Assembly (NCBI GenBank): GCA_910587445.1
Contig: CAJULE010000001.1
Span: 99,748 to 163,747, forward strand
Length of the DNA: 64,000 nucleotides
Direction of reading: 5' to 3'
Source of the DNA: an uncultured Christensenellaceae bacterium
GTDB lineage: Bacteria; Bacillota; Clostridia; Christensenellales; Pumilibacteraceae
Under the pieces are notes generated by a model that ran no database searches, was not told the origin of the DNA, and was given only the letters and a program-made list of their open reading frames with translations. The position numbers were made by a program, and so were the translations under genes. Below are positions 5,227 to 29,750 of this stretch, in pieces (within the stretch, counting starts at the first letter, position 1; each line of letters opens with the position of its first letter).

Positions 5227-6699
5227 ATGAAAAAGAAATTCCGAAATGCGTTTGCGGTGTGCCTTGTCGCGCTTACGGTTGCGCTTGTCGCCGTTTTGGG
5301 CGTCGGTTGCGGCGGAACGCAAAAGTATATCGTCTCGATAGAGGCGGGGCAGGAGTCGGGCACATACATAGTCACATATTCCGACGGAGAAACGCAGACT
5401 ATGGTTCTGCCGGGTAAGGACGGCAGGGACGGGAAGGACGGAAAAGACGTCACGATAACCGATATATACGAAACCTACGTCAAGGAGACGGGCGAGGATA
5501 TTTCATATTCGGAATTTATCGACAAGTATCTGTCGCTCAGTGTCCAAAGCGACAATTCCGCGACAATCGCGCAGTGTCTGCGTTCGGTAGGCAAGGTATA
5601 CGCCGAGTTTGTCGAACAGGTGTCCGGATCGTTTTTCGGCCGTCCCGTATATGACATAGCGATTTATACGGGCGCGGCGGTCGTGTGGTCTATGGACGAA
5701 GCTCAAGACGGATATACATACTTCGTGACAAACGCTCACGTAATATACGATTCCAAAGCCGTTTCGAGCGAGAACGACGGAAAAATAGCGCGCAAAGTCG
5801 TACTTTATATGTACGGCAGCGAAAGCTCACCCTACACGGTGGACGGAGACGGCGACGGCAGAGCGGACGCTGACGAGAACGGATACACCCTCTACGATTA
5901 CGGCGATTACGGTATCGAATGTGAAATAGTCGGCTATACTTTCGAAAAGGATCTTGCCGTAATAAAAGCAAAGACTGACGACGTGAAAAAGGTCAACCCG
6001 AACGTCTGCGCCGTGGAGCTTGCCGACGAATATCATGTGGGTGAGACGGCGATCGCCATAGGCAATCCCGACGACGGCGGCATAAGCGTAACCGAAGGAA
6101 TAGTCAGCGTCGACAACGACGACATAGAGCTCACGATAGACGCAAAGCGCACCTATCGTTCCATTCGTATGGATACCGCGCTTTACGGCGGAAATTCGGG
6201 CGGCGGTCTGTTCAATTCGTCGGGCAAGCTTATCGGCATAGCGAACGCGGGCAGCACTCAGGAAGAGAACATAAATTACGCGATACCTCTCGAGATAGTG
6301 CGCGGTACGGTGGAAAACATTCTCTATTGGGACGCGGACGGCAGTTCGGCGACGAGCGGAGCTTATAAGGTTACTCTCGGCGTGACGGTGCTTTCGAGCG
6401 GCTCGAAATATATCTATGATTCTTCGCTCGGCTACGGCAAGATAGTCGAAGACGTAGTCGTCCGCTCCGTCGTCGAAAACTCCATTGCTTCCCGCTTGGG
6501 CTTATCGAACGACGACGTGATAACCGCCGTAGTCGTCAACGAAAAGAAAACGGAAGTAAAGCGCAGTTTCGATATATCGGACATAATTCTCACCATGCGC
6601 CCCGGCGACGAAATAGCCGTCGGGTACACGCGCGGCGGCGAGACTTATACGAGCGAAAGCTATACGCTTGCTTCTTCCGACTTCGAAAAGCTTGCCTGA
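5227..6699 (+). CDS. secreted lipoprotein, trypsin-like (S1C / HtrA-DegP-like) serine peptidase with C-terminal PDZ-like region
   Basis: Signal peptide + lipobox (LAVLGVGC). Catalytic triad His (TNAHVIYD), Asp (DLAVIKA) and Ser (GNSGGGLFNSSGKLIGIANAG). Short collagen-like GKDGRDGKDGKD repeat. Start taken at ATG 5227 (AAGGAG 7 nt upstream) rather than the ORF-track start at 5197. Confidence 0.75.
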   Translation: MKKKFRNAFAVCLVALTVALVAVLGVGCGGTQKYIVSIEAGQESGTYIVTYSDGETQTMVLPGKDGRDGKDGKDVTITDIYETYVKETGEDISYSEFIDKYLSLSVQSDNSATIAQCLRSVGKVYAEFVEQVSGSFFGRPVYDIAIYTGAAVVWSMDEAQDGYTYFVTNAHVIYDSKAVSSENDGKIARKVVLYMYGSESSPYTVDGDGDGRADADENGYTLYDYGDYGIECEIVGYTFEKDLAVIKAKTDDVKKVNPNVCAVELADEYHVGETAIAIGNPDDGGISVTEGIVSVDNDDIELTIDAKRTYRSIRMDTALYGGNSGGGLFNSSGKLIGIANAGSTQEENINYAIPLEIVRGTVENILYWDADGSSATSGAYKVTLGVTVLSSGSKYIYDSSLGYGKIVEDVVVRSVVENSIASRLGLSNDDVITAVVVNEKKTEVKRSFDISDIILTMRPGDEIAVGYTRGGETYTSESYTLASSDFEKLA

Positions 6700-6726
6700 A
6701 ACCTGCCGATAAAATATAGGATAAAT

Positions 6727-6758
6727 CTCCCTCCTCGTCGAACGCGGAGGGTTTTTTA
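6727..6758 (+). terminator. rho-independent terminator after protease gene
   Basis: ccctcc...ggaggg stem followed by TTTTTT. Confidence 0.5.
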
Positions 6759-6892
6759 TTGTAATTTATATCCTCGGAACCGACAATGCGGGCAAAAAAA
6801 ATCACAAAGCGGGGCATATCCGTTTGCAAAAAAGCAAGTTTATGTTAAAATAGAATAAAGTGCTTCGGCTGTGTCGGGGAGGAAGAAACATC

Positions 6893-7603
6893 ATGCTGAA
6901 AATAGCGATGGTAGAAGATGAGAAGGAAGCTCGCGAGTCGCTCGGAAAGCTCATAAGGAGCTATTTCGACACACGCGGCGCGGGCGATTATACTGTAAAC
7001 GAATTTCAGAATGCCGTACTTTTTCTGTCGAAGCAAAAAGCCGATCACGATATTGTATTCATGGATATAGAAATGCCGGATTTCGACGGACTTACCGCGG
7101 CAAAGAAACTGCGCGAGACCGATCCGCTTGTGCTTCTTGTCTTTGTCACGAATATGCGCAGATATGCGACAAAAGGCTACAGCGTGGACGCGCTCGATTT
7201 CATAGTCAAACCGCCGACCGAGAACGCGCTGTTTTCGGTGCTCGACAAAGCCCGCAGAGTGCTTGCTTCCCGCACTGGGCGCGACATAATAATAAAGACG
7301 GCTCACGGCATGAGAAGAGTGCCCGTGTCCGAAATACGCTATATAGAGGTCAACCGCCATCGCCTTACGATACATCTCGAAACCGACGCCTTCGAGGCGT
7401 GGGGAAGTCTGAAGGAGTTGGAAGCGCAGCTGCCCGCCGATAAATTTTCGCGGTGCAACATAGGGTATTTGATCAGTCTCGAACACCTTTCGGGGATAGA
7501 CGGAGACGAAGTGGTCATGGGCGAAGATCGGCTCAAAATAAGTCGGCCGAAAAGAAAAGAATTTCTTGCCGACGTTGCCGCATATTTCGGGAGCGTGAGA
7601 TAA
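6893..7603 (+). CDS. LytTR-family response regulator (REC + LytTR DNA-binding domain)
   Basis: N-terminal receiver domain (acidic pocket DEKEA, FMDIEMPDFDG phosphoacceptor region). C-terminal LytTR domain (IRYIEVNRHRLTIHLETD). Start at ATG 6893 preceded by GGGGAGGAAG. ORF-track start 6860 is an upstream GTG. Confidence 0.85.
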   Translation: MLKIAMVEDEKEARESLGKLIRSYFDTRGAGDYTVNEFQNAVLFLSKQKADHDIVFMDIEMPDFDGLTAAKKLRETDPLVLLVFVTNMRRYATKGYSVDALDFIVKPPTENALFSVLDKARRVLASRTGRDIIIKTAHGMRRVPVSEIRYIEVNRHRLTIHLETDAFEAWGSLKELEAQLPADKFSRCNIGYLISLEHLSGIDGDEVVMGEDRLKISRPKRKEFLADVAAYFGSVR

Positions 7604-8955
7604 TGTTCGATTTTTCCGCACCGCTTTTTTGGTATAAGCTCATATTCATGGCAGAACTCCTAATAAGCGAAGCGCTTGCGACCTATACGCTCAAAAAGAA
7701 ATCTCGCTTTGCTTTGCGCGCGCCGCTAAGCGTGCTCGGCTGTCTTGCGACGGCTTTTTTATATCCGCTGCTTTCTTTTTCCTACAACGCCGCCTATACG
7801 TCGGTGATGTTTTTCGTGCTTTTCGGAGTCACTCTCGTCGGAATGAAGATGTGTTACGATGAAACGTGGGTCAACCTGATTTTTTGCGGAATCATCGCGT
7901 ATACCACACAGCATATAGCCTATGAAATAAACTCGCTTGTAACGACGGTGTTCGACCTCGGAGATATAGGCTCGTACTATGGCGGCGCACCCACCGGCGA
8001 GAGTAACCCGCTTATGTATATTACTTATTTCTGCGCATACTTTTTCACCTATTGGTTCGTGTGGGCTTTCATAGAATACAGAATAAGAAGGCGGCAGAGC
8101 TTGAAGATAGAAAACCTGTCTTTGTTCTTTTTCTGCGCGGTCATAGTGGTGATAGACATAGTTCTGTCTACGGTGGTGACCTATCTTCCGTATTCGCCCG
8201 AAGTCAAGTCTTACACGGCGGTGATAGGAATATACAATATACTTTCGTGCGGTCTTGCCGTGGGAATGCTGTTTTCCATGCTCGGCAAGCACCTTGTCGA
8301 GCAAGAACTCGAGACGGTCGAAGAGCTTTGGAAGCGCGACAAAAAGCAGTACGAGATGAGCAGTAAGAACGTCGAACTCATAAACATAAAGTGCCATGAC
8401 CTCAAAAAACAGATACGCGCTCTTTCCGAGGGCAACAGGGTGATTGACGGCGCGGCGCTCAGGGAGATAGAAGAGGCGGTCAACATCTACGACGGGGCGG
8501 TCAAGACGGGCAACGACGTAATAGACGTAGCGCTCGCGGAAAAGAGCCTTATTTGCGAGAGGGAAGGCATAGACTTCACCGTCATTGCCGAGGGCGAAGC
8601 GCTGTTTTTTGTAAGCTCGAACGATTTGTATTCGCTTGTCGAAAACGCTTTGTCGAATGCGGTGGAGAGCTGTCTTAAAACGGACGACAAAAAGGAACGG
8701 TTTATAAAACTGTATATACGTTCGGTGCGCGGCATGGCGAGTATTCACGTCGAAAATTTTTGCGGAAAAGAGCCGAAATTCGTAAACGGCTTGCCCGAGA
8801 CGAGTAAGGACGATAAAGACAGCCACGGCTACGGAATGAGGAGTATGCAGCTTATATCCGAGAAGTACGGCGGCGGACTCAAGGCGTCGTACTCGGACGG
8901 AGTTTTTACGCTCGACGTCATACTTCCCATGCAAACGGGGCAAAAATCGAACTAA
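7603..8955 (+). CDS. membrane sensor histidine kinase, GHKL ATPase of the AgrC/ComD-like (HATPase_c_5) type
   Basis: Start ATG overlaps RR stop (TAATG). Six to seven N-terminal TM helices. C-terminal ATP-binding region (ENFCGKE...SHGYGMRSMQLISEKYGG) typical of LytTR-partner kinases. ORF-track start 7453 runs through the RR gene and is rejected. Confidence 0.75.
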   Translation: MFDFSAPLFWYKLIFMAELLISEALATYTLKKKSRFALRAPLSVLGCLATAFLYPLLSFSYNAAYTSVMFFVLFGVTLVGMKMCYDETWVNLIFCGIIAYTTQHIAYEINSLVTTVFDLGDIGSYYGGAPTGESNPLMYITYFCAYFFTYWFVWAFIEYRIRRRQSLKIENLSLFFFCAVIVVIDIVLSTVVTYLPYSPEVKSYTAVIGIYNILSCGLAVGMLFSMLGKHLVEQELETVEELWKRDKKQYEMSSKNVELINIKCHDLKKQIRALSEGNRVIDGAALREIEEAVNIYDGAVKTGNDVIDVALAEKSLICEREGIDFTVIAEGEALFFVSSNDLYSLVENALSNAVESCLKTDDKKERFIKLYIRSVRGMASIHVENFCGKEPKFVNGLPETSKDDKDSHGYGMRSMQLISEKYGGGLKASYSDGVFTLDVILPMQTGQKSN

Positions 8956-9059
8956 AGCGGGAAAAGAGTATTGAAATCGACGAAACCTTATTTTATAATG
9001 CAAGCGTCTTCGGCAAATGCCAAAATGCTTGGGGATAATAAAAAATAAGGAGAAAAGAG

Positions 9060-12382: not shown

Positions 12383-14370
12383 ATGAAAAAGGCAATTTAC
12401 TCATTATGTGCGCTATGTATGGCGCTTGCAATCGTACTTATTCCCGTGAGTACTCTTGACGCTTTCGCTCTTAACGCGGACGCGGAGCCTATGGAAAAAA
12501 AGTGTTCTGCAGCGTGACTCTCGAGGACGACTTTGCGGAAGACGAAGTGGTAGTTACGATAAAAAATAAGGAAAGTTTAAAGTTCAAAAAATATGTAGCA
12601 AGTGATTTCGTCGATATCGGTTGTGAGTCGGTTGATGATTTGTCGATCGCATATGCCGATGATGTGCGAATACATAAGGATCATGCTTGTAAAAAGTCGG
12701 CTTTTGCAAAAGATTATAATCAGCTTCTTAGTCTTAAATTGAAAGAAAAGAGCAAAGAGAATGTTCTCGCGGCAATTAAGGTGCTTGAAAAGCGTGATGA
12801 TGTGCTTTCTGCTGAGCCGAGTTATATTTTGGATTCATTCGATAGTAATGTTGAGGAAAATAACGGGCATGGAATCGAACCAAATAAGGCAATAGGTGGT
12901 GGATTGCCTATAAATCCCGTGTTACCTGTAGTAAAGCCCACAAAGCTTCCTAACGACCCCGGGCGATCTCGGCAGTGGGCAATTGCAAGAATAAAGCTGC
13001 CCGAGGCATGGAACTATACCACGGGTTCGAGTGATGTTGTTGTTGGGGTTATAGACAGCGGTGTTGATTCTACGCATCCCGATTTACAAGGCAAAATCGA
13101 TACGTCGCTTAGCTATGATTTCGTAAATAATACATCTGCTATGCCTGCTACGTCAAGTCTTTTTTATCATGGGACAATGGTTGCGGGAATTATAGCTGCT
13201 CAGACCGACAATGGAGAATGAATTGCAGGCGCAGGGTGGAACGTAAGAATAGCTTCGCTAAGAGTTGGTGACAGCTTGGGTGGAATTAAAACCCCTTATG
13301 TCGTGTCGGCGATAGAATATGCTAGAATAAAAGGGATTCCTATTATCAATCTTAGTCTCGGGGGTAAACAAGACGACAGTAGGCTTCGCAGTGCAATAGA
13401 AAAATATACAGGGGTAATAGTGTGTGCAGCCGGAAATGCCGAAGCGGATAATGATGACAGCAAAAATGCAGTTTATCCGGCGAGTTATAGCTATAGAGAA
13501 AACTTAATATCCGTAGGAGCAAGTGATACAGAGGATAAAAGATTTATAAATGGCGGCACAGGTTCCAATTATGGGAAAACGACAGTAGATTTATTTGCTC
13601 CGGGAGCCAACATATATTCTACGATGATACAAGGGCGTTATCAAGGGTCATGCTCCGGTACGAGTTATTATGAGTCGGACTCCGGGACGTCGTATGCCGC
13701 ACCATATGTTTCGGGTGTTGCCGCATTGTTGCTTTCAAGATTTCCGGAACTTACTGCTGCGGAAATTAAAGACGCTATAAAGAACAATGTCAGTAAAGTG
13801 AGCGCACTCAGTGACCTGTGTGTTTCGGGTGGTAGACTTAATGCCTTAAATGCGCTTATTGGTTTACATTCGGGTCATAGATACGGGCAATCCTATTCAT
13901 TTGTATCGCAAACACAACATGCATCATTCTGCGAATGTGGGGATCATAAACTTGAGCCACATTGGGCATATTCTTCTTCCTTACGTATGTACAACGGACA
14001 TCGATATGCTACTTGTGCGTGCTGTAAATATGAAATAAATATCGATAATAATCCCATAATTGTAATAAGCAATTCAGCTCCCGGAGAGCTTGAACTTATG
14101 GGGCTTAAAGTGGTAGAAAGTCCAAAGCAGCTTGTGCAGGCGCTTTCTCAAAATTTTCGGCAAACAAGTTCTTTGAAAATGGAAGCTGTCCTGTCATATT
14201 ATGATGAAGAGTTTTTTGAGACATATGCAATAGTCCTGTCCGATGATTTTGATATGGAACGTGTCGTAGAGTCTCTGTATTCGAATATAATAGAGTGTAG
14301 AAAATACATTGACAAAGAAGGAAATTTTTGGTATGATACAGACAATAACTATGAGGAGATATATGCATGA
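12383..14370 (+). pseudogene. secreted subtilisin-like (peptidase S8) serine protease, disrupted by a frameshift in an A7 run and an in-frame TGA; C-terminal about 120 aa is a novel tail domain
   Basis: Signal peptide ORF (12383-12510) ends after an A7 run. Adding one A fuses it in frame to the I9 propeptide-like region of the 12502 ORF. The Asp box VVGVIDSGVD and the His box HGTMVAGIIAA are followed directly by TGA (13219-13221) at the position of the conserved Gly of the subtilisin NxxGxG(V/I)AG motif. The same frame continues into ORF 13276-14370 with the Asn (LSLGG) and Ser (GTSYAAPYVSG) boxes. AT-rich relative to its flanks. Confidence 0.7.
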
Positions 14371-14825
14371 AAAAGAGACTGATTCCTATATTGATTGCGC
14401 TTGCATTGTGTATGAGCATAGTTTTTTGTGCTTGCGGTTCGACAAGTGAAACTCCTATATGCGACTATGAAGAGCTGTCTGCGGAAACAAGAACAAAAAT
14501 TGCTCAGGCATATTGCGACTTATATGAGTTAGATGAAAATGAAGAAAAGAACTTTGAGGTCGAGGAGTTTTATACCTCAAGGGAAGGCGTCTATGTATTC
14601 TATACGCATTATGCGGTATTTGCTTTTCTGGCATTACGAAGTGAGAAAATCGGCGGTGTCCGAATCGAGTATCCCGATAGTATAGGATTTAATGTTTATA
14701 TAGAGCAGACCGACGAAATAATCGGACTTGCTAATGCTTATGAACAGGGTTTGGTTACAAAGAAAGATATAAAGCTCATAAACGAAAAGCACAAAAAAGC
14801 GCGTTCGTATCTTTACAAAGATTGA
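14367..14825 (+). CDS. repeat lipoprotein, copy 1 of a duplicated cassette (paralog of 27181-28338)
   Basis: Start inside the stop of the protease ORF (ATGA). Signal + lipobox SIVFCACG. Shares the IxxAYCD(L/I)xY block and one xAYExGxLxxxDI repeat with the 385-aa paralog. Confidence 0.6.
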   Translation: MKKRLIPILIALALCMSIVFCACGSTSETPICDYEELSAETRTKIAQAYCDLYELDENEEKNFEVEEFYTSREGVYVFYTHYAVFAFLALRSEKIGGVRIEYPDSIGFNVYIEQTDEIIGLANAYEQGLVTKKDIKLINEKHKKARSYLYKD

Positions 14826-14850
14826 ATCATACCTAAAATCTAACTTCCGA

Positions 14851-24510: not shown

Positions 24511-26685
24511 ATGAGCGAAACGGTTTTCGAAAACAGCAAATGGATCTGGGCGGAACAGGTCGATTCTTCCGCAGACGACGTGGTGATATTTCGTCGTCCG
24601 TTTAACGTGGATAAGCCTCCTAAAACGGCTGTCGCAAGAATTGCCGCCGAAAACAGATACTTTCTGTATCTCAACGGAAAAGAGGTCGTTGTCGGAGGAG
24701 GAATGCTTCGCACGGGGCGCTCCGGCAAGGGATTTTACGACGAAATCGATCTGTCCGGGTACATCGAAAAGGGCGAGAACGTCATAAGCGTAATAGCCAT
24801 GTTCTACGGCGCTGCGGACAATAAACTTTCCGCGGGCAAGGCGGGATTGCTTTTCGAGTGTCCGGAACTGTCCGTAAGCTCGGACAGCGGCTTTACGGTC
24901 TATAGGGACAGAGCGTATTCTGCGCACCCCGATTATGCGAAGCCCAAGGCGGCAGGCATAAACATCAAATACGACGCGACTCTCGAGAGTATGCTTACCG
25001 GCTATCAAAAGCCCGAGTTCGTGTCCAATCTGTTTGTCGCCGCGACGGAACTCGGCGAATACGGCGCGGAGCCGTGGGGCGAAGTCGTGAAGCGTCCCGT
25101 ACCCCTCTTTGCCGGCAAGCTTGTGGAGAAGTGCCGCAAAATAGACAAGCGCACGAACGTCCTCATGGGCGACAGGTACGCGGACGAGTACACGCTTACG
25201 CTTCCGCGTGCGATGAACGTATATCCCAGACTTTCGGTCACGGCAAACAGCGGCGACAGGATAGAGGTGAAAAGCGAGCGCTACGAGGTCGGCGGCTGTT
25301 ATGAGGACGAGGGCAAGAGTACGAACGGTTTTCGCTTCGAGTACATCTGCAAAGCCGAATCGCAGACCTTCGAATTTCCGCAGACTCTGTACGGCGAGCG
25401 CCTCATATTCTCGATAACGCCCGGCGTGAAGGTTCAGGCGCTCGGTTATCGGGAAAGCCTGTACGGATCGGTCGATGACGGCGAGCTTCGCACGGACGAC
25501 GAGTTTCTCGGGGCGCTTCAGGAGAAGTGCGCTGACACGCTTGTCGGCTGTATGCGCGAAGGATTCGTCGATACGCCCGAGCGCGGCAACTATGTTTTGC
25601 CTGCGGCGGCTTCCGTGGGCGCCGACGGCGCGTTCTATCTTTTCGAGGACGGCGGAGTCGCGCTTGCCGAAAAGTTTATGGCGGATACTTTGGAGCTTGC
25701 CGAAAACGACATTCTTTATGCGAGCGTCTACGGCGAGCGCAAGGAACTTCCTTCGCAGATGCTGATCGCGCTTTCGGAATTCGGCATTGCGGCGAAATAT
25801 TACGCATACGTCGGGATGAATGAAAAGCTTGCGGCTTTCGTCGTTGCGGGACTTAAATACCTTGCGAAGTGGGAGCAGGGAGAGGACGGCTTTATTGCGC
25901 CTCGTACGCAGGCAAAGTGCGACGATCTTTTCAATTGCGATGAAAAACTCGTGCTGAATATGCTCTACTATTCGGCGCTCAACAACGTCTGCCGACTCAT
26001 GGAAGCGACGGGCGACGATACTCATTCGGGTTTTCTCGACGATAGGGCGCAAAGCCTTAAGGCGGCGTTGGACGCGTGTTACGACGGCATGGGCTATTCG
26101 AGCGTCAAAGGTTTTTACGACGACAGGGCAAACGCGTTCGCCGTGCTCTCGGGTATAGCGGACAATGAAGAATACACGGGACTTACGAGGATTCTCGAGT
26201 CGGTCGCTTGCGCAACTCCTCTGTACGAAGGCTATGTGCTCGAGGCGCTTTGCGTTATGGGCGAAGGAAACATAGCGCTACGCCGCATGAAGAGCCGCTA
26301 TCACGACATGGTCGAAAACGGCAGGTCCACGCTTTCCGAGGACTTTGCGGGACGAGGTGCGAAAAGCTATCTCGGATCGGTCGCTCCGCTGCCTATCATG
26401 TATCGCTATTTCGCGGGCATAAACTTCGACGAGGGGCTCGGCAAAATAGTCATAACTCCCGATCTGCGCTCTCTCGGCGTCATAGATTTCCGTTTGACGC
26501 TTGAAGGCGGAAAACTTTCGGGCAGGTTCGCCAAGGTAAAAGACCGCGTGGAAGTTTTCGTCGATAACTCTACGGGGAAAGAAGTCCTGTTGCTTTTAAA
26601 GAGCGAGTTTATAGGCAAGGACATAGACGGCATGAGCGAAAAGGGCTTTAAGCTTACGAAAGGCAAAAACAAGTTTACGATTTAA
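24511..26685 (+). CDS. glycoside hydrolase, putative alpha-L-rhamnosidase-like (GH78-type, six-hairpin)
   Basis: N-terminal SKWIW...YFLYLNGKEVVVGG block resembles the rhamnosidase N-domain motif. No signal peptide. Family call is tentative. Confidence 0.4.
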   Translation: MSETVFENSKWIWAEQVDSSADDVVIFRRPFNVDKPPKTAVARIAAENRYFLYLNGKEVVVGGGMLRTGRSGKGFYDEIDLSGYIEKGENVISVIAMFYGAADNKLSAGKAGLLFECPELSVSSDSGFTVYRDRAYSAHPDYAKPKAAGINIKYDATLESMLTGYQKPEFVSNLFVAATELGEYGAEPWGEVVKRPVPLFAGKLVEKCRKIDKRTNVLMGDRYADEYTLTLPRAMNVYPRLSVTANSGDRIEVKSERYEVGGCYEDEGKSTNGFRFEYICKAESQTFEFPQTLYGERLIFSITPGVKVQALGYRESLYGSVDDGELRTDDEFLGALQEKCADTLVGCMREGFVDTPERGNYVLPAAASVGADGAFYLFEDGGVALAEKFMADTLELAENDILYASVYGERKELPSQMLIALSEFGIAAKYYAYVGMNEKLAAFVVAGLKYLAKWEQGEDGFIAPRTQAKCDDLFNCDEKLVLNMLYYSALNNVCRLMEATGDDTHSGFLDDRAQSLKAALDACYDGMGYSSVKGFYDDRANAFAVLSGIADNEEYTGLTRILESVACATPLYEGYVLEALCVMGEGNIALRRMKSRYHDMVENGRSTLSEDFAGRGAKSYLGSVAPLPIMYRYFAGINFDEGLGKIVITPDLRSLGVIDFRLTLEGGKLSGRFAKVKDRVEVFVDNSTGKEVLLLLKSEFIGKDIDGMSEKGFKLTKGKNKFTI

Positions 26686-26819
26686 AAGACGCAAAAGTAA
26701 TAACAAAAATTTAAACGTCGGTTGGCTTCGGGCTCTTAAGGGCTAGAGTTCTGACGTTTTTTTTGACGTTTTCCGTGGCTCTCCCCATGAATTTATCCTT
26801 ATTTTTTCCAAAAGTCCCC

Positions 26820-26848
26820 TTGACGAGCTCACGAAAGCATGATATAAT
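26820..26848 (+). promoter_or_regulatory. strong sigma-A-like promoter (TTGACG-N17-TGATATAAT, extended -10)
   Basis: TTGACG at 26820-26825, TATAAT at 26843-26848 preceded by TGa. Confidence 0.5.
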
Positions 26849-26902
26849 TTAAGTACGATATTACTTATAATTACTCTTCCCGGGTCTTTTTCGGTCGGAG
26901 AG

Positions 26903-27184
26903 TTGGAGACTATGGGACTGAGAGTAATAGAAAGTCCTACCGAGCTTGCAAATGAAATATGTACTTTGGAAAATGTTTCGGAATACTATCGAATAAATGA
27001 GATATTATCGCATTATGATGAACTGTTTTTTGAAAAGTATAATATTGTAATAGCCGATAATACGGATAAGAGCAATATCATAGATAATTTGCATATGAAT
27101 ACAGTAGAGAATAGTAAAAATATCGGACAAAAAGAAAGTATATTATTCGGCAAAGATTGTGAGTTCGAGGAGGTATATGTATGA
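26903..27184 (+). CDS. small cytoplasmic protein (93 aa) homologous to the C-terminal tail of the S8 protease at 13990-14370; first gene of cassette copy 2
   Basis: MGLRVIESPTELANE...LSHYDELFFEKYNIVIADN... aligns with LMGLKVVESPKQLVQ...LSYYDEEFFETYAIVLSDDF... of the protease tail. RBS GGAGAGTTGGAG. Confidence 0.55.
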   Translation: METMGLRVIESPTELANEICTLENVSEYYRINEILSHYDELFFEKYNIVIADNTDKSNIIDNLHMNTVENSKNIGQKESILFGKDCEFEEVYV

Positions 27185-28338
27185 AAAAGAAAATAATTTC
27201 GTTATTTGTCGTATTGACGTTTTGCATAAGCGTTGTTTTTTGTGCGTGCGGCGGCGCGGGCAATAAGTCGGGTAAAGACGATATACCTTTAACTTCGGAA
27301 GAGATACTAGAGATAAAAAAGGCATATTGCGATATAATGTATAACGGCAGGAAAACAGCCGTAGCGGACGAAATTATCGAGATATTTTCTTATTACGGAA
27401 ATTACGACGGGGCAATCGTAGTCACTGTCGACGGCAAGACGGGGATAAGTTCTTATCGGTCCAACCGTTTCACGGCGATGGGATATGAGTTTGTCGGGAC
27501 GCCGAAATCACTTTTTAAAGTGTATAAAGACGGCGAGATGAAGAGTTTGGATGAGGCGTGCGAAAACGGGTGGCTTAAGGAAGAAGACATAAAAGCCGTT
27601 CATGAAATATATGCCGAGGAATATGCAGTATATTACAAAGACGCTTCGGCAACCGAAGATTACGAAAAGATAAGAGTACAGTTCAACGAACAAATCGGTG
27701 CGGCTTCAAGCGATTGCGATGTTTTTTATACGAGCTTGGGCAGCTACGCTTCTACCGAAGTGCTTTCTCTCGAATCGGAGGATTTTTGGAGAAATTCTCA
27801 TTCCGCGACTTGTAAGGCGGGAGAAGCGACGTTTAATCTTTCGGGAATGACTGAACTTCGGGCGTACAGAGACGGCGTATTGCATACGGTGGAATCCGCT
27901 TATGAAAACGGGTGGCTTACGGCGCAGGATATCGAAAAAGCGCTTGCATTGCATAAAGCCATGTACCCGTATGTGTATATAAGCCGAGAAGAAGCGCCGA
28001 GCGCAGACGAAAAGACCAAAGAGAAAATGGCGCGGGAATACTATGAGAAAAGTTTAAAACTCAATTACGAGAACGTAAAAGCAAGCCAAGTGCAAGCAGA
28101 CGCTTTTTACGGGGAATATTCGGGCGCAAGCGTTTATCATTTTACTACTCCGCTTGCGAGCGTTACTGCGTGCGTAACTTGCATTTTGGGCGGAGTGGTG
28201 TTCGGATTCGGATCGCCCATGCAAGTTCTCGAAGTATATAAAGACGGAAGCTTTTTGAGCTTAGAAGCGGCATACAGAACGGGGTGGCTTTCGGTAAGCG
28301 ATTTGAGAGCGTTGCAGTCTTTGTATTACTTGCGCTGA
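27181..28338 (+). CDS. repeat lipoprotein, copy 2 (385 aa) with three about 35-aa Y[KR]DG...A[YC]ENGWL..DI repeats
   Basis: Start overlaps the previous stop (ATGA). Signal + lipobox SVVFCACG nearly identical to 14367-14825. Repeats at about residues 113-150, 228-265 and 352-385. Confidence 0.65.
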   Translation: MKKKIISLFVVLTFCISVVFCACGGAGNKSGKDDIPLTSEEILEIKKAYCDIMYNGRKTAVADEIIEIFSYYGNYDGAIVVTVDGKTGISSYRSNRFTAMGYEFVGTPKSLFKVYKDGEMKSLDEACENGWLKEEDIKAVHEIYAEEYAVYYKDASATEDYEKIRVQFNEQIGAASSDCDVFYTSLGSYASTEVLSLESEDFWRNSHSATCKAGEATFNLSGMTELRAYRDGVLHTVESAYENGWLTAQDIEKALALHKAMYPYVYISREEAPSADEKTKEKMAREYYEKSLKLNYENVKASQVQADAFYGEYSGASVYHFTTPLASVTACVTCILGGVVFGFGSPMQVLEVYKDGSFLSLEAAYRTGWLSVSDLRALQSLYYLR

Positions 28339-28381
28339 ATCATAGCTCAGTAAGGTTTAAACCGAATAAAGAAAAACTCGT

Positions 28382-28417
28382 ATCCCCTCGAGCGTATCGA
28401 GGGGATATGTGTTTTTG
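28382..28417 (+). terminator. rho-independent terminator
   Basis: atcccctcga gcgt atcgagggga t, then atgtgttttt. Confidence 0.6.
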
Positions 28418-28547
28418 CGGCAAATTGCAATTTCACCGAAAAATCACGGTATAACAATTGATTTTTTTGCTCTGCTATGGTAAAATGTATATGATGTAGA
28501 TTTATACACTTTATGGGTATGGACCCTCGGAGGCAAAGTTTTACGAC

Positions 28548-29750
28548 ATGAAAATCAGCGAAAGAGCAAAAAGGATCGCACCGTCGCTTACACTCGAGAT
28601 AACGGCAAAGGCCAATAGGCTTAAGGCGGACGGAGAGGATGTGATTTCGTTCGGTGCGGGCGAGCCGGATTTCAACACTCCCGATTTTATAGTCGAGGCG
28701 GCGGACGTCGCGCTCAAAGAGGGCATGACGAGGTATACGCCGGCTGCCGGTACAATGACGCTACGCCGTGCCATTGCCGGCAAGCTCGAAAGAGAAAACG
28801 GCTTAAGATATGCGCCCGAGGAAATAGTGGTTTCTAACGGCGCAAAGCACAGCCTTCACAATGCCATTCAGGTAATAGTAGACCCCGGGGAAGAGGTCAT
28901 AATCCCCGCGCCGTATTGGCTCACGTATCCGGAGCTCGTAAAACTTGCGGACGGCGTGCCCGTGATAGTCGAAACAAAGAAGGAAAACGATTTTAAGATC
29001 ACGGCGGCGGAGCTTGAAAAAGCGATTACGAAAAAGACCCGCGCAATCATTCTGAACAGTCCCAACAATCCCACGGGCGCCGTGTATTCGAAGGAAGAGT
29101 TTGCGGCTCTTGCGCGCGTTCTCGAAAAGTACGGGGACATATACATAATCTCCGACGAGATATATGAAAACCTCGTCTATGACGGAGCGGAGACGGTGTC
29201 GTTCGCGCTGTACTCGAACGAGATAAAAAATCGCACGATACTCGTAAACGGCGTGTCCAAGACCTTTTCCATGACGGGTTGGCGCATAGGTTATACCGCT
29301 TCCAATAGGGAGCTTGCTCGGGCAATGTCGAGTATGCAGAGCCACATGACGTCGAATCCCAATTCCATTGCTCAATACGCTACGGAAATAGCGTTCAACG
29401 ACATTCGCGGAGAGCAGTTCGTGCAGAGTATGCAGACGCAGTTCGGCGAGAGAAGAAAGCTCATAATCGACGAGCTCAAAAAGAGCGAGACGCTTTCCGT
29501 AGTCGAACCCGAAGGCGCGTTTTATTGCCTCGTGTGCGTAAAGAGCCGCTTCGGCAAAAGCGCGGACGGCGTCGTTATAGACAGTGCAAAGAAGTTTGCC
29601 GAGACCCTTCTCGAAAAAGAGAAGGTTGCCGTTATTCCGTGCGAATCGTTCGGGGCGCCCGATTATATAAGGCTCAGCTATGCGATTTCGCCGCGCGACA
29701 TAGAACGCGGAGTAAAAAGATTGGTGAGGTTTGCGGACGGCTTGAAGTGA
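28548..29750 (+). CDS. aspB: aspartate/aromatic aminotransferase (class I PLP aminotransferase)
   Basis: PLP-lysine motif SKTFSMTGWRIGY. NSPNNPTGAVY. Overall AspC/AspB architecture. Confidence 0.85.
   Translation: MKISERAKRIAPSLTLEITAKANRLKADGEDVISFGAGEPDFNTPDFIVEAADVALKEGMTRYTPAAGTMTLRRAIAGKLERENGLRYAPEEIVVSNGAKHSLHNAIQVIVDPGEEVIIPAPYWLTYPELVKLADGVPVIVETKKENDFKITAAELEKAITKKTRAIILNSPNNPTGAVYSKEEFAALARVLEKYGDIYIISDEIYENLVYDGAETVSFALYSNEIKNRTILVNGVSKTFSMTGWRIGYTASNRELARAMSSMQSHMTSNPNSIAQYATEIAFNDIRGEQFVQSMQTQFGERRKLIIDELKKSETLSVVEPEGAFYCLVCVKSRFGKSADGVVIDSAKKFAETLLEKEKVAVIPCESFGAPDYIRLSYAISPRDIERGVKRLVRFADGLK

Follow-up and report, generated by a model that had tools for sequence, protein, structure and literature searches.

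Has a protein domain of 93 amino acids (aa) acquired a gene of its own, or is that gene what remains of a larger one? The question is raised by positions 26820-28338 of a 64,000-nt stretch of DNA from an uncultured Christensenellaceae bacterium (contig CAJULE010000001.1; the whole stretch is called the window here). A strong promoter is followed there by a TTG-start open reading frame (ORF) of 93 aa (26903-27184, + strand; 90 aa if the first ATG, at 26912, is used) and by a 385-aa ORF for a predicted lipoprotein, lipo385 (27181-28338, +), which shares an ATGA overlap with the stop codon of the shorter frame. An earlier note on this DNA had described the 93-aa ORF as a stand-alone tail-domain gene and, given that a related domain is fused to a secreted protease elsewhere in the window, had seen in it a hint of domain shuffling.

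Comparison with sister strains leaves little doubt that the region is a decayed two-gene operon, which consisted of a promoter, a gene for a secreted thermitase-like S8 subtilase, a coupled lipoprotein gene and a terminator. What had looked like a free tail-domain gene born of domain shuffling is an ordinary deletion scar in a protease operon. Checking the claim yielded, besides, an undescribed domain family with S8 subtilases as its consistent partner, the reuse of this domain in signalling proteins, and repeated decay of the protease with the lipoprotein kept. The lipoprotein is probably a dedicated partner of the subtilase outside the cytoplasm, and its possible roles are weighed below.

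A protease operon that lost most of its first gene

A protein identical to that encoded by lipo385 is present on four contigs from other samples. Aligned by blastn, the sister strain L001 and the window are 99.2% identical to the left and 99.6% to the right of a site at which L001 has 1,837 bp and the window 181 bp; identity ends where the upstream 724-aa gene stops (26685) and restarts at 26867. The L001 stretch carries an intact 656-aa Peptidase_S8 gene (PF00082, E = 1.3e-45), whose stop codon overlaps the start of an identical lipo385 in the same arrangement as in the window. Its product consists of a signal peptide, a pro-region of ~160 aa, a catalytic domain closest to Ak.1 protease and thermitase, a Cys/His-rich linker and a 95-aa tail. 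The idea of a stand-alone gene does not survive this comparison, as the intact S8 gene ends in the same 105 codons that precede lipo385 in the window. The coding sequence missing from the window, and likewise from L003, amounts to 1,653 nt (codons 1-551), and the tail thus became free by deletion, at the junction TACTTAT|AATTACT, and not by shuffling. L001 and L002 have the long form of the site and L003 the deleted one, its 181-bp segment being identical to that of the window. The elements of the locus are as follows.

26686-26866 (+): island-specific upstream segment of 181 bp, delimited by blastn against L001, which contains the promoter and the leader's first ~12 nt
26820-26848 (+): putative sigma-70-type extended -10 promoter TTGACG-17-TGaTATAAT, recognised by its consensus and its homology to the L001 S8 promoter
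26866-26867 (+): deletion junction with a 2-nt AT microhomology, joining the S8 5' leader to codon 552 of 656
26867-27184 (+): S8 remnant, the last 105 codons plus stop (C-terminal tail domain), 99.6% identical to L001 9687-10004
27167-27173 (+): Shine-Dalgarno sequence GAGGAGG, 7 nt before the lipo385 ATG, read from the sequence
28379-28417 (+): putative intrinsic terminator, an inverted repeat forming a 13-bp stem (28379-28409) with 7 GC pairs, followed by a T run

The promoter matches the consensus at 11 of 12 positions and has the TG extension besides; there are two sites of this grade in the 64-kb window and none in first-order Markov simulations. The segment that holds it is a diverged homologue of L001 7850-8033, with an identity far below that of the flanks, and the parts conserved between the two are the -35 element, TGaTATAAT and the leader CGATAnTACTTAT. 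Judging by this homology, it is the former subtilase promoter, which since the deletion has stood ~55 nt upstream of the last 105 S8 codons. Because so diverged a promoter segment lies between flanks that are >99% identical, the deleted allele is best read as descending from an island variant with another 5' region, and the island as a mosaic. A parent that has the window-type 5' segment without the deletion was not found.

The 93-aa product has no Pfam match and the S8 catalytic domain is not present in it; on this evidence the ORF represents a piece of an S8 gene and does not encode an S8 peptidase. The sequence GGAGAG, 9 nt before its ATG, might permit translation, in a start context that did not evolve for the remnant. 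Since the remnant has no signal peptide, its product, if made, would remain cytoplasmic and could not meet the exported lipoprotein. Lipo385, on the other hand, should still be produced, since the promoter, a strong Shine-Dalgarno sequence of its own (encoded by the conserved Glu-Glu codons that end the tail) and the terminator, which can probably work in both directions, have all been retained. A scan of 26000-29000 against Rfam gave no leader RNA or riboswitch.

The promoter, the 93-aa ORF, the ATGA-overlapped lipoprotein gene and the terminator were thus all present at or close to where the earlier note had placed them. Its independent transcription unit stands as well in having a strong promoter and a terminator of its own, with the amendment that it represents the former operon, from which most of the first gene has gone. 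The note was also right in taking the locus for the second copy of a paralogous pair. The tail is 33% identical over 93 aa to the C-terminus of the S8 subtilase encoded by copy 1 of the cassette (E = 4e-18), and lipo385 is 30% identical over 158 aa to the copy-1 lipoprotein, lipo152 (E = 2e-15); the S8 proteins of the two copies share 52% identity. The intact L001 gene, the deletion junction and the missing signal peptide of the remnant together indicate that in both loci the tail was ancestrally fused to the protease and that the 'free' tail results from decay. Tblastn found no third copy of the cassette in the 64-kb window; a low-GC stretch at 40-42 kb, tried as a candidate, contains unrelated ORFs of 154 and 201 aa and was ruled out. 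Both cassettes are low-GC islands (0.38-0.44 against a background of ~0.52), and a repeat search for signs of a mobile element gave no convincing flanking repeats around either of them.

Three copies of an undescribed domain

By inspection, lipo385 begins as a lipoprotein would, with MKKK, a hydrophobic stretch and F-C-A-C(23)-G. A Cys at position -2 of the lipobox is unusual, and the motif [LVF]CAC recurs in homologues. The rest of the protein is built of repeats.

27181-27249 (+): lipo385 predicted signal peptide with MKKK n-region, hydrophobic core and lipobox FCAC (Cys23)
27259-27645 (+): domain module 1, from the module alignment and profile envelopes; closest to the lipo152 module
27646-27990 (+): domain module 2, from the module alignment, z-scores and DNA repeats
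27991-28335 (+): domain module 3, from the same three kinds of evidence

The thirds of lipo385 align over their full length with each other, with Smith-Waterman z-scores of 12-16 against 500 shuffles, and with the single unit of lipo152. A DNA repeat finder, too, gave three copies, at 27543, 27885 and 28257, with intervals of 342 and 372 nt, and a profile of the module placed three envelopes in lipo385 (aa 31-154, 153-268 and 268-385) and one in lipo152; this profile was built from the window's own sequences, so that the pairwise z-scores, the matches outside the window and the consensus of 74 aligned modules are the independent support. The three repeats proposed earlier are therefore real, and their proposed size of ~35 aa is not: the 26-aa strings quoted for them are the conserved C-terminal part of domains of ~115-125 aa. 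Lipo385 thus consists of a signal peptide and, in tandem, three ~120-aa domains of an undescribed extracytoplasmic type, and lipo152 of a signal peptide and one such domain.

No family in Pfam-A, NCBIfam, PADLOC or PHROGs covers lipo385 or lipo152, and neither protein has a Pfam match at E <= 1, Peptidase_M56 and PrcB_C included. For the module, library scans of homologues gave just motif-level matches to XkdX and Plectin over the GWLTxxD turn. A word-indexed protein search returned lipo385 alone for lipo385 and two close relatives for lipo152. A HMMER profile of the five available modules, run against 1.84 billion representatives, found 1,940 clusters (50% identity) at E <= 1e-3 and 388 at E <= 1e-10, which bears out the larger accessory family that the earlier note had supposed. 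Among the 150 matches listed and the window's two lipoproteins, the number of modules per protein ranges from 1 to 5 and is mostly 2 or 3, and most of these 150 matches have a signal peptide and a Cys at the N-terminus, often with the same xCAC lipobox. The hallmarks of the module are a YYGxYxG hairpin and the motif VYxDGxFxxLxxAYExGxLTxxD.

Some relatives carry the module in other company. The top four long matches (P0004, P0005, P0006 and P0012) are BlaR1-type Peptidase_M56 proteins (E about 1e-50) with modules at the extracellular C-terminus, and P0151 combines modules with an RsgI-type anti-sigma domain (RsgI_M). P0088 has them together with LRR_5, and P0145 with a chagasin-type Inhibitor_I42 and PPC domains. 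Reuse of the module in BlaR1- and RsgI-type signal transducers is unreported in the libraries searched.

An AlphaFold2 model of the lipo152 module, based on the 74-sequence alignment, reached a pLDDT of 88 and a pTM of 0.81. It predicts an N-terminal helix that packs on an antiparallel sheet of six strands, with further helices at the C-terminus. The predicted fold is of the helix-on-sheet class and weakly resembles cystatin or DsbC in shape, which implies no membership in either family, and a Foldseek search of the model against the Protein Data Bank (PDB) gave no match at E < 0.2; PDB sequence searches yielded no family for the lipoproteins either. The fold is predicted with confidence and neither Pfam nor NCBIfam has a model of the domain, which leaves it for curators to define.

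Copy 1: a dead protease gene and an intact lipoprotein gene

The other cassette of the window has lost its protease in a different way.

12384-14370 (+): copy-1 S8 subtilase pseudogene with the paralogous tail; 1-nt deletion near 12499 and in-frame TGA at 13219-13221
14309-14337 (+): putative internal promoter TTGACA-17-TGgTATGAT within the tail codons, 30 nt upstream of the lipo152 ATG
14367-14825 (+): lipo152, the copy-1 lipoprotein gene, 152 aa, one module, in ATGA overlap with the S8 stop; recognised as an ORF with similarity to lipo385

The frameshift lies in an A-rich run after the signal peptide, where GAAGACAAG has become GAAAA-AAAG, and is common to all six other strains of the same species that were retrieved; two of the six have a further 2-bp deletion in the S8 gene. 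The in-frame TGA reads GGA in L008 (same species), L013 and L005, the last of which has an intact 661-aa orthologue of the protease. Recoding of TGA was considered for this stop and ruled out, as the tail ORF has TGA for its stop codon at both loci; the GGA of those three sequences and the separate frameshift contradict it as well. L004, L011/L012 and L013 have suffered independent damage to the copy-1 S8 gene, and each has retained the lipoprotein. Lipo152 is intact in every strain and species compared, and its exact sequence is found in 133 blocks of the assembly collection. Thus, both subtilase genes of the window have been inactivated and both lipoproteins are intact.

Between the window and L005, the ratio of non-synonymous to synonymous substitution rates (dN/dS) is 0.20 for the S8 gene, 0.23 for the tail and 0.35 for the lipoprotein, which in the comparison with L013 has 0.19. 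Since all parts have been under purifying selection across the window/L005 divergence, the losses of the copy-1 protease appear to be recent.

The internal promoter is the other of the window's two top-grade sites, and in L005 and L013 it is a perfect TTGACA-17-TGgTATAAT. Copy 2 has no counterpart of it; there, the deletion kept the operon promoter. Both lipoprotein genes have GAGGAG(G) 7-8 nt before the ATG (GAGGAG-8-ATG in copy 1), in each case formed by the conserved Glu-Glu codons of the tail.

Linkage of the module to S8 subtilases

Is the subtilase a regular companion of the module? We scanned metagenomes with a hand-made degenerate motif, G.F..L..AY[ED].G.L[TS]..D, which samples ~14% of the module family, and obtained 107 loci, all 107 of which encode module proteins. 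S8 is the sole recurrent neighbour family within two gene positions, with 26 ORFs in 24 loci, and 22 of the 26 lie at +1, that is, on the same strand and directly downstream of the module gene; the next family occurs in 4 loci. Counted more strictly, an S8 gene begins <=300 nt downstream in 14 of the 77 module genes that have >=1 kb of room. The share of S8 genes in bacterial genomes, which we take to be well under 1%, serves as the background for these counts. Many of the loci come from few related samples, and the signal persists after de-replication: of 106 non-redundant module clusters, 16 have a member that lies next to an S8 gene.

The partners on both sides are of one kind. All S8-adjacent module proteins have a signal peptide and a Cys start. 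The subtilases of the window and the metagenome neighbours share a pro-region of the form ATLxxDF...V.VVL...F.QIL.L.L..SKE.VL.AIK.LEK..DV.YAGPDY, and the C-terminal domains of the neighbours vary (FG-GAP, ricin-type lectin, BspA-type LRR, FGE-sulfatase plus Flg_new). Two loci, L107 and L092, have S8, module and S8 genes in alternation with overlapping stops and starts, and in L117 (9762-14554) five module lipoprotein genes lie upstream of a single S8 gene. Both cassettes of the window fit this S8-paired class, copy 1 through the pseudogene that overlaps lipo152 and copy 2 through the intact S8 gene of L001, and the ATGA-coupled arrangement has been kept in both paralogous pairs despite their divergence.

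In L056 and L100 some S8 genes are split into fragments, which may reflect further subtilase decay or assembly errors.

What the lipoprotein may do

From gene order and sequence, then, the module lipoprotein is probably a dedicated extracytoplasmic partner of this subtilase subfamily. As to the kind of partner, we prefer, tentatively, a membrane-anchored, multi-headed guard or inhibitor. Several observations favour this: the lipoproteins outlast the proteases in several independent lineages; that of copy 1 has a conserved promoter of its own; the modules are multi-headed and at times occur in paralogous gene arrays (L117); their fold class is cystatin-like in shape; and one relative (P0145) also carries a chagasin-type Inhibitor_I42. 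The lipoprotein, held on a short linker at the outer face of the membrane, would bind the subtilase as it leaves the Sec channel, and would shield the envelope of the producer from its own enzyme and from enzyme released by neighbours. Strains without a protease would still gain from such a guard, namely protection from the enzyme of kin that keep the subtilase, such as L001-type strains. A guard that protects the envelope from own and foreign subtilase could be expected to be kept after the loss of the protease and to be expressed independently, and the BlaR1- and RsgI-type proteins with modules would sense extracellular protease.

Such pairs are known elsewhere. Staphopain and staphostatin, or serralysin AprA and AprI, are co-transcribed protease-inhibitor pairs, and multicystatin has tandem multi-headed repeats. 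The cassettes resemble these systems in that the gene lies directly beside that of the protease, in the tandem repeats, and in a possible protection of the producer. They differ in that no known inhibitor family matches the module by sequence and in that the module would act on a serine protease, where the targets of those inhibitors are cysteine or metalloproteases.

Several findings weigh against the guard. About 80-85% of the sampled members of the module family have no S8 neighbour, and the domain also serves as the input domain of signal transducers, so that it may be a general binding module. In the metagenome pairs the lipoprotein mostly lies upstream of the S8 gene, which is the prcB-prtP order of dentilisin. 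Between the window and L013 the synonymous divergence (dS) of the cassette is only 0.04 and the lesions are polymorphic, so that retention of the lipoprotein may be just a matter of recent loss. Finally, the model of the tail is poor (pLDDT 60), and no relatives of the tail were detected outside the lineage. For the account as a whole, an operon remnant plus a subtilase-partner lipoprotein with the guard or inhibitor preferred, our confidence accordingly falls somewhat short of even, although we regard it as the best explanation at hand.

Subtilases with an accessory lipoprotein are already known as a kind, and so are proteases with an adjacent inhibitor; the partner module here is outside all defined families tested. 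If it is an inhibitor or guard, it would represent a new class of bacterial serine-protease regulators and would point to gut Clostridia that compete by means of proteases or sense them. Going further, the module might define a new family of membrane-anchored, subtilase-binding inhibitor or 'immunity' domains, with protease and lipoprotein as producer/immunity modules and the M56 and RsgI fusions as protease sensors. We consider this larger proposal rather unlikely; were it true, strains of gut Firmicutes would repeatedly drop a costly protease while keeping, and independently expressing, the guard.

The strongest competitor, somewhat unlikely in itself and placed only just behind the guard, makes the lipoprotein an anchor or maturation partner that stabilises or folds the exported subtilase and holds it at the cell surface, as PrcB or PrtM do for their proteases. 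The protease could then dock through its variable C-terminal domain, in this case the tail, and several modules could hold several proteases. The precedent is the dentilisin operon prcB-prcA-prtP of Treponema denticola, in which the S8 protease PrtP accumulates only if PrcB, a 23-kDa lipoprotein encoded just before it, is present; the acyl chains of PrcB anchor the complex, and deletion of the C-terminus of PrtP abolishes activity (PMC8167434). The likeness lies in an S8 subtilase sharing an operon with accessory lipoproteins, and the commonest order in the metagenome pairs, lipoprotein then S8 on the same strand, matches that of prcB-prcA-prtP. An anchor would also fit S8 being the sole conserved neighbour, the lack of a recognisable wall or membrane anchor in the subtilases, and the start/stop overlaps in the window and L107, which suggest stoichiometric co-production. 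Tail and lipoprotein have, besides, diverged alike and more than the whole S8 protein.

The resemblance has limits. No sequence similarity between the lipoproteins was detected, nor a match to PrcB_C; the present proteins consist of a repeated ~120-aa module of a widespread family; the window has the S8 gene first and the lipoprotein second; the host is no spirochete but a Christensenella-like Firmicute; and the S8 protein scores 58.8 bits against the NCBIfam model denti_PrtP, far under the cut-off of 300. In the lactococcal PrtP/PrtM system, a secreted S8 protease has a neighbouring maturation lipoprotein that acts outside the membrane, and this PrtM is a PrsA-like parvulin foldase. The module differs in having no parvulin-type domain by Pfam and a different predicted fold, and shows no sequence relation to PrsA/PrtM-type foldases any more than to PrcB_C. 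A helper should, moreover, be useless without its protease, yet both lipoproteins are intact after two independent S8 losses and one of them has its own conserved promoter. Most members of the family have no adjacent subtilase, and the array of five lipoprotein genes before one protease gene in L117 is not expected of a chaperone. If the anchor were nevertheless true, the cassettes would provide a counterpart to the dentilisin complex in Gram-positive bacteria.

An unlikelier alternative denies a physical partnership altogether: the module would be a general extracytoplasmic binding or sensor domain, next to S8 genes as one of several co-regulated surface functions. It is in keeping with the modules that form the outer domain of the BlaR1-type M56 proteins and of P0151 or accompany LRR_5 in P0088, with the many members that lack an S8 neighbour, and with the persistence of lipoproteins without a working subtilase. 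Some members do carry modules where BlaR1/MecR1-M56 and RsgI proteins carry their sensor domain, whereas lipo385 and lipo152 have no transducer part and are plain lipoproteins. Coincidental adjacency is, however, difficult to reconcile with S8 as the sole recurrent neighbour, at +1 in 14/77 to 22/~77 cases and far above the estimated background, with neighbours that all belong to one subfamily, and with an S8-lipoprotein coupling that has survived duplication of the gene pair within the genome.

We give still less credence to a lipoprotein that is the substrate or precursor of the subtilase, cut in the way PrtP cuts PrcA so that something is set free or activated. That precedent, the S8 linkage and repeated modules that could be cut apart speak for it; the modules abut directly, however, with no conserved inter-module linker or cleavage motif, the modelled domain is predicted to be compact and well folded, and the lipoproteins have been kept after loss of the protease. 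That the 93-aa ORF is a genuine free-standing domain gene, derived by shuffling between paralogous cassettes and working with the lipoprotein, is scarcely credible despite its open frame behind a strong promoter, its GGAGAG and the purifying selection on the tail in fused form, as it matches the 3' end of the intact sister-strain gene at 99.6%, begins exactly at the deletion junction, lacks a signal peptide where the lipoprotein is exported, and has no stand-alone homologue in the window, the species genomes, the metagenomes of the Joint Genome Institute (JGI) or the 107 module loci.

A further candidate was examined and rejected. Lantibiotic clusters can combine LanP, an S8 leader peptidase, with LanI, a small or tandem-domain immunity lipoprotein. 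No lanthipeptide precursor, modification or transport genes lie around either copy, and lanthipeptide genes are not recurrent neighbours in the 107 loci either.

Tail and Cys/His-rich linker

Comparison of the tail with the module by hhalign gave a probability of 0.2%, and the two are thus unrelated. The tail belongs to no family in Pfam, NCBIfam, PADLOC or PHROGs and had no match in PDB sequence searches. Relatives of linker plus tail were found at one locus among 185,579 species genomes, in an uncultured Christensenella sp. that carries the copy-1 orthologue; the linker-plus-tail motifs had no match in the JGI metagenomes, and neither tail nor linker matched in the 107 module loci. Given the variety of C-terminal domains among the neighbour subtilases, the tail is best seen as a lineage-specific member of their variable C-terminal slot.

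The linker between S8 domain and tail (window 13864-14085; L001 9492-9716) is strongly conserved, with the pattern HxxHRY...QHASFCxC...LEPHWAY...YNGHxYATCACCK. It looks like a metal-binding module by this pattern, and its AlphaFold model is of low confidence.

Surroundings of copy 1

The copy-1 cassette (12400-14850) is ~97% identical to that of L013 (uncultured Christensenella sp. MGBC137892), and the flanking core genes are ~80% identical; this difference indicates that the low-GC island was probably exchanged or swept between species recently. No mobile-element genes lie around the island. A related genome in GTDB, on which the assignment of the host is based, is 87% and 81% identical to the window over two aligned stretches.

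Cassette 1 is preceded by a GH3 gene, upstream of which, at ~6300-9000 of the window (annotated on L007), lie genes for a LytTR response regulator and a HATPase_c_5 histidine kinase, an Agr-like two-component pair, and for an HtrA-like Trypsin_2/PDZ protease. In L004, where the LytTR, histidine kinase and GH3 genes are missing at this place, the cassette comes immediately after the HtrA-like gene.

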